Source of the DNA: Phycisphaerae bacterium
GTDB taxonomy: Bacteria > Planctomycetota > Phycisphaerae > UBA1845 > Fen-1342
Length of the DNA stretch: 64,000 nucleotides
Reading direction: 5' to 3'
NCBI GenBank assembly: GCA_963675745.2
Contig: CAXXWX010000007.1
Coordinates: 97,376 to 161,375 of the forward strand
Shown here: in pieces, positions 38,993 to 41,900 of the stretch
How the letters are laid out: every line of letters begins with the position of its first letter
Position numbering within the stretch: the stretch's first letter is position 1
Made by a program: the position numbers

Positions 38993-41900
38993 AGCGGTAC
39001 CGCTGGTGCTGGCCGAGCCGCCGATCGTGGCGACGGGCATGGAGCGGGCCGTGGCGCAAAACAGCGGCATGGTGATCAAGGCGCGCAAGGCGGGCAAGAT
39101 CACCTACGTCGATGCTAATCGCATTATCATCGACGACGCCGACGAGTACATCCTGCGCAAGTACGTGGGGCTCAATGAGCGCACCTGCCTGAACCAGAAG
39201 CCGGTGGTCAAACCGGGTCAGCGGGTGAAGAAGGGCCAGGTGATTGCCGATGGGGCGGCGACGCTGGATGGCGAGTTGGCGCTGGGCAAGAACGTACTGG
39301 TCGCGTTCATGACGTTTGACGGATACAACTTCGAGGATGCGATCGTCATCTCGGAGCGGCTGGTAAAGCGTGACGTGTTCACCAGCATTCACATCGACGC
39401 TTATGATGTGGAGATCCGCGAGACGAAGCTGGGACGCGAGGAGTTTACGCGCGACATTCCGAATGTGTCCGAGCGGGCGCTCGCCGACCTCGACGAGCGC
39501 GGTGTGGTTCGCATCGGAACGCGCGTCAGCGCCGGTGACATTCTGGTCGGCAAGGTCTCGCCCAAGGGCAAGACGGAGCTCAGCCCCGAGGAAAAGCTGC
39601 TGCACGCGATCTTTGGTCGCAGCGGCGAGGACGTGAAGAACGACTCGCTCGAACTCCCCGCCGGCCAGGAAGGTGTCGTAATCGGGGCCAAGCACTTCAG
39701 CCGTCACACGCACCTCACCGACGAGCAGAAGCGTGACATCGACCGCCAGATGAAGGCGTTTGAAGCCGGCTGCGATGAAAAGCGCATCCGGCTCTTCCGG
39801 CAGATGTGCCAGGCGATTGAGGATCAGGTCGGCGAGCCCATCATCGACCGCGGTACGCGGCAGAAGGTCGGCAAGAGTGAGAATCCCGACGTGATCCTGG
39901 AACAGATCGGCGCATTCGAGGGAGGCTTCCCGCGAAGCTGGATCAAACCCGCGTCGATGCGTGATGCGGCGGAGAAGATCTACGCGAGCTTCTGGCCGCG
40001 CATCGAGGAGATCAAGGCCGAGTGCGAACGCCGCCTGGGGCACATGAAGCGCGGCGATGAACTGCCCTCCGGCGTGCTGGAGATGGTCAAGGTCTACATT
40101 GCGACCAAGCGCACGCTGGCCATCGGTGACAAGATGGCCGGCCGGCACGGGAACAAGGGCGTCATCGCGCGGATTGTTCCTGAGGAGGACATGCCGTTCC
40201 TCGCTGACGGGACGCCGGTGGACATCATGCTGAACCCGCTGGGCGTTCCGAGCCGTATGAATGTCGGGCAGATTCTGGAGACGCACCTGGGCTGGGCGGC
40301 GATGGTGCTGGGCTTCCAGGCGGTTACGCCCGTCTTCGACGGGGCCAGCGAGGCGCAGATCACGGCCTGTATCGACGAAGCCAACGCCTATGTCGAAGAG
40401 CGCGAGCGTGACGTTGATGTCGTGCGCAGCGCCGGCGACACGGACGAGTTACTCGTGCAACTGCCCAATACCGGGAAGGTCACGTTATACGACGGTCGCA
40501 CCGGCGAGCCGTTGGACCAGTCGGTGACGACGGGCTACATCTACATGCTCAAGCTGCACCATCTCGTGGATGACAAGATCCACGCGCGCTCGACGGGCCC
40601 CTACAGCCTGATCACGCAGCAGCCGCTGGGTGGCAAGGCGCGCACGGGCGGTCAGAGGTTCGGCGAGATGGAGGTCTGGGGTCTGGAGGCCTACGGCTCG
40701 GCATACGTCTTGCAGGAACTGCTGACGGTCAAGAGCGATGATGTCGAGGGGCGCACAAAGATCTATGAGAGCATGGTGAAGGGCACCAACAAGCTCGACG
40801 CCGGCACGCCTGTTTCGTTCGACGTGCTGTGTAACGAGATTCGTGGGCTGGGATTGAACATTCAGCTTGAGAAGCAGAAGCTGATTTAGCAGTGGTCCGC
40901 CGGTCTGTGCGGGGCGTGTTGCTCCGCGTGTCAAGGAGTGCACCGATGCCTGACATAGAGTATGGCAGTGGTGAAAAGACGACGGCTGAAGAGTTGTCGG
41001 GTTTCTACGCCCGGCTCAATCACCCGATACACGCCTCGCCGGCGCATATCGAGCGGATGATGGCCAATAGCGCGGTATTTGTCACGGCGCGTGACGCGGG
41101 CAAGCTGATTGGCATTGCACGCGGGGTGTGCGATGGGTTGCGCGGCTACCTGACCGAGTGCAAGCTGGACCCCGCGTACCAAGGCCCGGCGGCGGTGACG
41201 CGCACCGATGGGCGCATCGAGCATGACACGCACGGCATCGCGGCCGAGATGGCCCGACGCGTGCTCAGCAAGATGTTTAACGACGACGTGGTCCGGGTCG
41301 ATACGCTGGCCTGGGGCACAGAAGTTGATTTCACCGAGGAACTGGGATTCAAACGCTCCGGCGGTCTGGTGGGACTCACGCTGCGGGTCGACGAATGGGC
41401 CGGCGGCCGCGATGACGAAGTCTGAGCCGCACAACGGAGTTTGACGTGATTTACCCGGTCGGCGACCGAAGAGCACCTATTCGCGAGGTATAACCGATGG
41501 GCGACAGTGTATACGATCGGATTAATGACTTCACCGGCGTGCGGATTGCGCTCGCGTCGCCAAACGATATTCGTAGCTGGTCCTTCGGCGAGGTAAAAAA
41601 GCCGGAAACGATCAACTACCGGACATACCGCGCTGAGAAGGACGGTCTTTTCTGCGAGCGCATCTTCGGGCCGGAGCGCGACTGGGAGTGCTTCTGCGGC
41701 AAGTATCGCGGAATCAAGTACAAGGGCATGATCTGCGAACGTTGCGGCGTCAAGGTGACGCACAGCCGCGTGCGCCGCAAGCGGATGGGACACATCAACC
41801 TGGCCGCGCCGGTAGTCCACATATGGTTCTTCAAGGCGATGCCCAGCCGCCTGGGCACGCTGCTGGATGTGAAGACGTCCGACCTGGAGAAGGTGGTGTA

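Follow-up and report, generated by a model that had tools for sequence, protein, structure and literature searches.

A divergent GNAT-fold protein encoded in the rpoB-rpoC spacer of an order of Phycisphaerae

The best structural match of the protein described here, X, was rice SNAT1 (PDB 6k5m, 7dai-7dal), a plastid NSI-type GNAT, and its best sequence-profile match in the PDB was DR_1678 of Deinococcus radiodurans (3s6f, 27-30% identity). X, DR_1678 and E. coli YpeA (PDB 2pdo, 4qvt, 4qus; NCBIfam PRK03624) are all single-domain GNATs of 140-160 aa. To our knowledge, neither DR_1678 nor YpeA has been reported beside RNA polymerase (RNAP) genes. Protein lysine acetyltransferases of E. coli include YfiQ/PatZ, RimI, YiaC, YjaB and PhnO (PMC6199490). 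These enzymes share the GNAT fold with X, and their class would be applicable if X acetylates RNAP. We know of none among the five that is encoded in the rpoBC operon. In nearly all other bacteria the genes rpoB and rpoC adjoin each other, and they are among the most rigidly linked bacterial gene pairs. A protein gene found between them in six families and in 204 of the 279 genomes of an order of uncultured Phycisphaerae makes this an unusual form of the operon, and no description of a gene at this place was found in the literature at the level of abstracts.

The rpoB-X-rpoC locus

The window, which is the whole stretch of 64,000 nucleotides analysed, carried rpoB (37056..40889, + strand), encoding RNAP beta of 1277 aa, and rpoC (41497..45924, +), encoding beta-prime of 1475 aa. 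The former was identified by the Pfam Rpb2 domains 1, 2, 3, 45, 6 and 7 (Rpb2_6, E 7.9e-130) and the latter by the Rpb1 domains 1-5 (Rpb1_1, E 6.4e-81). X (P0001; 40946..41425, +) was translated without stops into 159 aa, which confirmed the survey's finding of a same-strand ORF of this length filling the space between the two genes. Its placement was correct, but the gaps of 57 and 72 bp given with it were coordinate differences; the true gaps were 56 nt from the end of rpoB and 71 nt to the start of rpoC, within a whole spacer of 607 nt. Upstream, rpoB was bordered by the divergent ruvX (YqgF; 36229..36678, -; Pfam RuvX, E 4e-39) and not by rplJ/rplL, and downstream the convergent tsaE (46465..47076, -; Pfam TsaE, E 4.6e-33) followed rpoC. 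Since both flanking genes lie on the opposite strand, the unit consists of three genes only.

A putative Shine-Dalgarno sequence, AAGGAG (40933..40938, +), was read 7 nt 5' of the ATG of X, and a GGAG-like motif occupied the equivalent place in most of 30 homologues. Another, GAGG (41485..41488, +), stood before rpoC, where GAGG or AGG was present in most of the 27 spacers examined. Across 27 genomes, the median lengths of the spacers flanking X were 30 and 78 nt, and a consensus scan of the + strand found no promoter-like or terminator-like site in either of them in the window. The sole promoter-like match upstream of rpoB was weak (9/12; 36762..36790, +) and is no evidence of function, because the scan returned 4 such sites in the region when 2.2 were expected. 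No Rfam family was found within 36000-47000. Among sequencing runs, none of RNA type was listed for 40500-42000, and two DNA-type runs from a single study covered this part. Judged from the tight spacers and the lack of promoter-like or terminator-like sites within them, co-transcription of X with its two neighbours is almost certain, as the survey had proposed. One mRNA would thus carry rpoB, X and rpoC, with translation of X relying on its own Shine-Dalgarno sequence, and the level of X would follow that of RNAP.

Conservation, predicted fold and a split motif A

X is a real gene, far beyond chance, and is under purifying selection. The dN/dS values were 0.09-0.17 for the 8 closest of 435 pairs, and the codon composition showed a GC3 of 0.76 against a GC2 of 0.47. 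An alignment of 30 sequences contained 34 invariant columns with a mean column identity of 61%, close to the 37 columns and 60% obtained by the survey from 12 sequences. The survey had also described a very divergent GNAT profile, and this was borne out. Acetyltransf_10 was matched by all 30 members at E ≤0.1 (best 2.8e-7) and NCBIfam PRK03624 by 26 of the 30 at the same threshold (best 1.5e-4). The X of the window did not reach the curated Pfam cut-off of Acetyltransf_1 or Acetyltransf_10, with E 0.04 and 14.6 bits against 20.7 bits for one family and 14.2 against 23.6 for the other; the same E value had been recorded by the survey, and the shortfall counts against the enzymatic reading given below. 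The PDB profile search again returned 3s6f (E 1.5e-5) and SNAT1 (E 3e-4). No specific sequence relation to the bacterial protein lysine acetyltransferases was found, since rimI TIGR01575 was matched by 1 of 30 members (E 0.049), and neither an NCBIfam equivalog nor linkage to ribosomal-protein genes placed X with RimI, RimJ or RimL.

The repeated AF2 model had a pLDDT of 90.6 (89.8 in the survey) and the same mixed α/β character. Its elements (E4-7, H14-23, H32-41, E44-50, E53-62, E66-74, H98-112, E117-119 and H125-132) followed the GNAT order β1-α1-α2-β2-β3-β4-α3-β5-α4-β6, with β6 not assigned as a strand by DSSP. Foldseek returned 257 PDB matches at E ≤0.001, and all of the matches listed were GNATs. 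Rice SNAT1 (6k5m/7daj) was matched with E 2e-10 and TM 0.73 by Foldseek, and with Z 17.2, rmsd 2.2 and 22% identity over 134 aligned residues by VIA. A search of the ESM Atlas gave GNAT clusters only. On the predicted model, X is a divergent GNAT-fold protein.

The invariant residues clustered on β4, the following loop, α3 and β5-α4. The end of β4 and the first half of motif A, E71-C72-K73-L74-D75-P76-A77-Y78-Q79-G80 (41156..41185, +), were located by the invariant columns and by the HMM alignment to 'DPSYQG' of SNAT1. A family-specific insert of 14 residues, A83-H96 (AVTRTDGRIEHDTH; 41192..41233, +), was located by the profile alignment to SNAT1, which skips positions 83-96. The motif that the survey called strictly conserved mostly held: E71, C72, K73, L74, Q79 and G80, together with T85, D88, G89, R90, E92 and D94 inside the insert, were invariant in the 30 sequences, but D75, P76 and I91 were conserved at ≥90% only. 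Conservation of cofactor and active-site motifs is the pattern that one would expect of an enzyme.

The insert interrupts the Q-x-x-G-x-G/A pyrophosphate loop, so that no contiguous motif A was found in the β4-α3 loop of X; Q79-G80-P81-A82 and G97-I98-A99 stand 14 residues apart. At the corresponding place, an ordinary planctomycete GNAT from genome G431, which was a weak match in the phylum search, had R-G-R-G-I-G and no insert. The Tyr of 'DFY..LGF' in SNAT1 aligned with a variable C/T/L/V in X. E71, Q79-G80, E92 and D94 were retained in relatives of 25-30% identity from other Planctomycetota and one Chloroflexi MAG, and E71 was the sole β4 residue also retained in the distant relatives (alignment A2). 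The split loop with its conserved acidic residues would make the cofactor site of X a structural variant among GNATs.

These features suggest that X is a functional small GNAT enzyme, and an acetyl-CoA-dependent N-acetyltransferase of the SNAT1/YpeA/DR_1678 type is most likely. The invariant Glu71 on β4 may act as the general base, and the loop inserted into the β4-α3 pyrophosphate loop may bring the conserved acidic residues E92 and D94 into the donor/acceptor site. The alteration of canonical features in this candidate enzyme, namely the split motif A and the replaced Tyr of SNAT1, counts against such a role.

Distribution, descent and other cargo of the spacer

One copy of X was found in each of 30 of 41 relatives and in each of the 204 carriers of the order. 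It was absent from 75 of the 279 genomes, in agreement with the survey, which had noted that X is missing from part of the order and is not essential. The survey's claim that X lies between rpoB and rpoC in every relative inspected was upheld in 35 of 35 carriers from six families, in which X was located, on one strand, after the RpoB C-terminus and before the RpoC N-terminus; for one of these (G513), the placement was deduced from two contig ends. No copy away from rpoB-rpoC was found among the 204 genomes with one copy each, of which these 35 were inspected for place. X was cleanly lost in the families f3, f4 and f9 and in most of f6 (29 of 35 genomes without X, 6 with). The rpoB-rpoC spacers measured 37-89 nt in four outgroup orders, all without X, and 58-137 nt in non-carriers within the order. 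In five in-order genomes with assembled rpoB-rpoC, no X was detected anywhere at E ≤0.001, and the spacers were 58-137 nt long or, in G026, held other cargo. Every taxonomic family was monophyletic in the X tree, and carriers and non-carriers were interleaved in the RpoB+RpoC tree. On these spacers and trees, the history of X is probably one of a single gain, vertical inheritance and several losses. X would have entered the rpoB-rpoC spacer by one insertion at an early stage of the order and been passed on vertically under purifying selection with precise loss in several families.

Distant relatives that share the insert did not adjoin rpoBC. The gene of one of them (P0159) followed purA on a 4.5-kb contig. 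A search with alignment A3 found only G439 besides G000 in a sample of 401 genomes of the phylum, and the G439 relative lay between a MATE-like and a beta-propeller-like ORF, both named by eye from their translations. Another search of the phylum matched 33 of 401 genomes at E ≤1e-5, mostly weakly; besides G000 and G439, most of these matches covered the N-terminal half only. The weak match in G349 contained a TGA.

Unrelated genes were also found in the rpoB-rpoC spacer. A cassette of a HEPN-domain gene and an 87-aa ORF lay directly 5' of rpoC in G026, which has no X, and in G014, which has it. A 258-aa ORF was located between rpoB and X in G012, and about 500 extra nt between X and rpoC in G021. 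The spacer is thus a permissive slot for unrelated genes, and since sister genomes carry such genes there, the position of X alone is weak evidence of function. Two long open frames were set aside: in an apparent RpoB-X fusion (P0169, 1076 aa), the 3' end of rpoB was read out of frame up to the junction with the frame of X, which makes it an artefact of a frameshift or of assembly and no Rosetta-stone fusion, and a 1012-aa frame in G513 was an alternative frame left open by chance in GC-rich DNA.

The HEPN-domain cassette in two genomes raised the possibility that X is itself a selfish or addictive element, for example a GNAT toxin of the TacT/AtaT kind, which persists because it is not excisable between two essential genes. 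GNAT toxins of this kind are similar in size to X. However, no small antitoxin gene such as accompanies TacT, AtaT or KacT was found beside X, where the 56 and 71 nt flanks leave no partner ORF, and a search with PADLOC gave no match that would indicate a defence role. Strong purifying selection acted over family-level divergence, and the clean losses mean that excision was possible. We consider this explanation very improbable.

In a specific form of the enzymatic reading, X would be a GNAT for detoxification or resistance, kept at a constitutively expressed site, whose acceptor is a small molecule with an amine group, for example an antibiotic or a polyamine. The VIA neighbours of X included AAC(6'), AAC(3), polyamine and phosphinothricin acetyltransferases (Z 13.5-14.1), a cationic acceptor would fit the conserved acidic residues E71, E92 and D94, and the patchy, dispensable distribution is typical of accessory enzymes. 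Resistance genes are usually mobile horizontally, whereas X was strictly vertical and confined to a single site, and no named NCBIfam resistance family was matched over its cut-off. This form is rated as improbable. The more general reading, that X was captured a single time in a permissive slot and is an active N-acetyltransferase, co-expressed with RNAP and acting on some other acceptor, has in our judgement about an even chance of being right. Its position would then reflect capture in a permissive, highly expressed slot, and its retention would be due to selection on the protein together with the rigidity of the rpoB-rpoC pair. The fixed place in all 35 carriers inspected and a unit that holds nothing except rpoB, X and rpoC also stand against this reading.

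RNA polymerase as a candidate target and comparison with known systems

The survey had read X as a dedicated RNAP acetyltransferase or accessory subunit. A dedicated enzyme would acetylate beta, beta-prime or an associated factor at a lysine or at the N-terminus, and the shared mRNA would scale the modifier with its substrate. Components of bacterial RNAP are on record as lysine-acetylated; one report states this for HrdB and gives the function in RNAPs as unknown (PMC7049703). The strict placement of X between rpoB and rpoC in the 35 carriers, the unit without other members and the tight spacers all favour such an enzyme, and protein acetyltransferases were among its close structural relatives by VIA (NatC/Ard1 chains, Z about 14; HP0935, Z 13.8). 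However, the polymerase bore no corresponding signature. When 12 carriers were compared with 9 non-carriers, 0 of 1576 RpoB columns and 0 of 1575 RpoC columns had disjoint residues, and no indel in either protein tracked X; RpoC E970 was the only near-discriminating column. The N-termini of RpoB and RpoC were alike in carriers and non-carriers, and the idea of N-terminal acetylation was rejected. The clean loss of X in f3, f4, f9 and 29 of the 35 f6 genomes, the insert-bearing distant relatives without RNAP linkage and the unrelated cargo in the same spacer also speak against dedication to RNAP. We regard a dedicated RNAP acetyltransferase as possible but unlikely.

X could also be a non-catalytic GNAT-fold protein, either an accessory subunit of RNAP or an acyl-CoA-sensing regulator. 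PanZ/PanM is a GNAT-fold regulator of this sort, which binds acetyl-CoA without transferring it. The canonical loop split by 14 residues, the Tyr of SNAT1 that X does not conserve and the location within the core-enzyme operon would fit such a protein, but the conservation of X falls on the cofactor and active-site motifs. A subunit or obligate factor would be present wherever RNAP is, whereas X was found in 204 of 279 genomes, and neither a docking feature nor co-varying residues were found in RpoB or RpoC. Replacement of omega was rejected, as rpoZ was present in 41 of 41 genomes, with or without X. Modelling of X together with RpoB 878-1277 and RpoC 1-440 gave no answer (score 0.00) and counts neither way. 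We consider a non-catalytic role improbable.

The survey's reading therefore stood for the conserved divergent GNAT, its fixed place and its co-transcription, and it was not supported for the dedication to RNAP, in view of the clean losses, the missing RpoB/RpoC signature, the indifference of rpoZ, the relatives elsewhere and the spacer cargo. Conserved membership of an operon usually signals a functional link, so RNAP keeps a minor share of the probability as the target of X. In a broader form of this idea, X would modify the RNAP core by use of acetyl-CoA or accompany it as a sensor of acyl-CoA, made in step with beta and beta-prime and linking central carbon status to transcription across the order, with the insert as an adaptation to this role; this, too, is only a tentative proposal. 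If X acts on RNAP, a bacterial core-enzyme operon would for the first time be known to encode an acetyltransferase, and the long-open question of the role of RNAP acetylation would become directly testable. If it does not, the rpoB-rpoC spacer can serve as a landing site for cargo such as X, the HEPN cassette and other ORFs, and perfect synteny between two locked neighbours is then weak evidence of function. With X as a captured N-acetyltransferase, the acceptor would more likely be a different amine, on a small molecule or on some protein outside the RNAP core, and the position of X is not read as proof that RNAP is the substrate.

Compared with SNAT1, X shared 'liGiaR..sD', 'DPsYQG' and 'G..a....v...l....v.rv...a....vdF...LGF' in the profile alignment. 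It differed in the 14 extra conserved residues between 'QGpa' and 'GIA', in the missing Tyr of 'DFY', and in being a bacterial protein encoded between rpoB and rpoC. In DR_1678 and YpeA motif A is contiguous, whereas in X it is split. Non-polymerase genes carried in ribosomal-protein/RNAP operons are known from the spc operon of E. coli, where secY, adk, map and infA encode housekeeping enzymes and not subunits. Like X, they are co-transcribed with the core expression machinery, and their operon position signifies co-regulation and not the identity of a substrate. The spc-operon genes are near-universal and essential, whereas X is confined to one order and dispensable.

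The rpoB-X-rpoC unit and its distribution

The 159-aa translation of the gene studied here, X, was encoded at window positions 40946-41425 (+), 56 nt after the stop codon of rpoB (37056-40889, +; 1277 aa) and 71 nt before the ATG of rpoC (41497-45924, +; 1475 aa). Pfam matches placed the identity of the flanking genes as RpoB and RpoC beyond doubt and, together with the translation, upheld the survey's finding of an ORF on the same strand between them. An AAGGAG was located 7 nt before the ATG of X. Because ruvX, upstream of rpoB (Pfam RuvX, E 4e-39), and tsaE, downstream of rpoC (Pfam TsaE, E 4.6e-33), lay on the opposite strand at the two edges, rpoB-X-rpoC formed a free-standing three-gene unit in the window genome, to which rplJ and rplL were not joined. 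A consensus scan of the + strand revealed a single weak promoter-like site upstream of rpoB and nothing resembling a promoter or terminator in either short spacer flanking X, and no Rfam family was matched in window 36000-47000. Elsewhere in the window, a complete-looking group II intron was found at 30340-32142 (+), with Rfam matches to D1-D4 pieces (30340-30513 and 30550-30631, +) and to domain V/VI (32071-32142, +); it contained a 467-aa reverse transcriptase/maturase ORF (30668-32071, +; Pfam RVT_1 E 3e-41, GIIM E 2e-20). A 618-aa ORF at 32283-34142 (-) had an RDD domain at its C-terminus (Pfam E 2.2e-13), and between it and ruvX (34037-36136) there were long ORFs on both strands without a convincing Pfam match.

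A six-frame search detected X as a single copy in 30 of 41 related genomes. The RpoC N-terminus was detected in 37 of the 41; since both it and X were missing from G003, G022, G033, and G034, the rpoB-rpoC region of these four is probably unassembled. The proposed fixed position of the homologue held in all 30 carriers, the window genome included: tblastn on the fetched loci showed X flanked by the RpoB C-terminus and the RpoC N-terminus, all three on the same strand. For G012, whose RpoB end fell outside the first locus, a longer fetch gave the order rpoB, an extra 258-aa ORF, X, and rpoC. The same rpoB-X-rpoC order was seen in five further carriers of family f6, among them G513, where X was split across two contig ends, one after rpoB and the other before rpoC. 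Order-wide, a single X match (E up to 1e-15) was obtained in 204 of 279 genomes. Within the families, with the window genome set apart, carriers numbered 64/71 in f1, 42/49 in f2, 5/5 in f5, 6/35 in f6, 85/101 in f7, and 1/1 in f8, and there were none in f3 (0/7), f4 (0/2), f9 (0/4), f10 (0/1), or f11 (0/2). Most of the 30 homologues had a GGAG-type site before the aligned ATG, and the median spacers in 27 genomes were 30 nt (rpoB-X) and 78 nt (X-rpoC). A protein database search returned 805 relatives at E up to 0.001; among the best 120, the named entries were "hypothetical protein" from Phycisphaerae or Planctomycetes MAGs. The passages returned by a full-text literature search contained no description of a gene between rpoB and rpoC or of the X family.

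The Nei-Gojobori dN/dS of X was 0.09-0.17 in the eight closest of 435 pairs, and the median over all pairs was 0.31, inflated by saturated dS. The rpoB-rpoC spacer measured 526-1160 nt in carriers, 58-137 nt in non-carriers of the order except G026 (794 nt), and 37-89 nt in four genomes from other orders of the class, which were without X. In the RpoB+RpoC tree, rooted with other orders, the X-less G026 (f3) was the first branch, and the non-carriers G032, G029 with G039, and G027 were interleaved with carriers, some deep nodes being poorly supported. In the X tree, rooted with distant relatives, each taxonomic family was monophyletic. The simplest reading is a single insertion early in the history of the order, followed by vertical inheritance and by exact loss of the gene on several occasions. 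It is almost certain that X is a functional protein with the GNAT fold and that its place in the rpoB-rpoC operon is fixed in this order.

Other occupants of the spacer and the polymerase as a possible target

X is not the sole occupant of the rpoB-rpoC spacer. Immediately before rpoC, G026, which lacks X (L044:2302-2980), and G014, a member of another family (L049:2270-2909, between X and rpoC), each carried a cassette of two genes. One is a HEPN-domain ORF (130-182 aa; Pfam E 5e-6 and 7e-8) with 40% identity between the two genomes; it overlaps the other, an 87-aa ORF that belongs to no known family (53% identical, E 7e-32). The cassette resembles a small module, mobile or of toxin-antitoxin-like type, with this spacer as its target. 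That X itself is an addiction element is very unlikely. The 258-aa ORF of G012 (L080:260-1036, -), between rpoB and X, began, judged by eye, with a signal-peptide-like segment and ended in a PEP-CTERM-like one (VPEPTSFF...), and had no Pfam match at E up to 0.01; translation of the flanking DNA in several frames gave repeated VGWA.PT and AEWWA.PT strings, suggestive of palindromic repeats of the REP-like type. G021 had yet another kind of occupant, a 166-aa ORF without Pfam or PADLOC matches, in about 500 extra nt between X and rpoC (L050:2268-2768).

The synteny of X does indicate co-expression with the polymerase. Since the rpoB-rpoC pair must remain linked, a gene inserted between the two will hold its position through vertical inheritance no matter what its role is, so the perfect synteny is much weaker evidence for a link with RNAP than it appears. 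When full-length RpoB and RpoC of 12 carriers were aligned with those of 9 non-carriers (5 from the order and 4 outgroup), no column had disjoint residues and no indel was discriminating; one column, RpoC E970 versus D/Q, was near-discriminating. No X-specific pattern was seen in the RpoB and RpoC N-termini, and rpoZ was present in all 41 genomes independent of X. The tests able to reveal a link between X and RNAP did not do so and, with unrelated cargo in the spacer, the survey's proposal of a protein dedicated to RNAP was not supported. The only RpoB-X fusion in the databases (P0169, 1076 aa) was rejected as a frameshift artefact and false public gene call, a product of the very long open alternative frames in GC-rich rpoB DNA. 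Such frames include an antisense ORF of 565 aa at 38589-40286 and, in G513 (L078), one of at least 570 aa. RNAP-directed acetylation is still a live rival, if an unlikely one; it is less likely still that X is a CoA sensor or a non-catalytic partner of RNAP. Our preferred overall reading, at even odds, takes X as an enzyme that entered a permissive, strongly expressed slot a single time and whose acceptor is not the RNAP core. Counted within this reading, a role in detoxification or resistance would be an improbable sub-case.

Fold and split CoA loop of X

The AF2 model of X (pLDDT 90.6, pTM 0.85) has the GNAT fold. Foldseek matched it to rice serotonin N-acetyltransferase SNAT1 (E 2e-10, TM 0.73), followed by DR_1678 (3s6f), SP0256, YpeA, and many further GNATs, and VIA aligned 134 residues with 7dai (Z 17.2, rmsd 2.2). 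A PDB profile search gave 3s6f (E 1.5e-5) and SNAT1 (E 3e-4). Acetyltransf_10 was matched by all 30 aligned homologues at E up to 0.1 (best 2.8e-7), and Acetyltransf_1 and NCBIfam PRK03624 by 26 each. The divergent GNAT profile previously reported was thus confirmed, with the window protein itself scoring under the Pfam cut-offs.

Motif A of GNATs is the loop binding the CoA pyrophosphate. SNAT1 was continuous through DPSYQGQG|LGKAL... in the HMM alignment, where the X profile skipped from position 82 to 97; X therefore has 14 extra residues, A83-H96 (AVTRTDGRIEHDTH), between Q79-G80-P81-A82 and G97-I98-A99, inside motif A. This insert was among the most conserved parts of X, with T85, D88, G89, R90, E92, and D94 invariant in 30 sequences. 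An exhaustive HMMER search over 1.84 billion representatives yielded no more than 40 clusters at E up to 0.001, and the insert-bearing family was rare: a phylum-wide sample contained it in 1 of 400 other genomes. The most distant clusters (25-30% identical), from another Planctomycetota MAG and a Chloroflexi MAG, shared the insert type and kept E71, Q79-G80, E92, and D94 but not C72, K73, and H93. Their genes were not near rpoBC: judged by eye, the G439 relative lay between MATE-transporter-like and beta-propeller-like ORFs, and the Chloroflexi one after purA. Because the conserved residues concentrate in the cofactor and active-site motifs, and distant relatives also retain the Glu of beta4, a putative general base, X is probably an active acyl-CoA N-acyltransferase. 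An ordinary planctomycete GNAT (G431) reads R-G-R-G-I-G where X has the insert. The Tyr of SNAT1 DFYKNLGF corresponds in the alignment to a variable C, T, L, or V in X.
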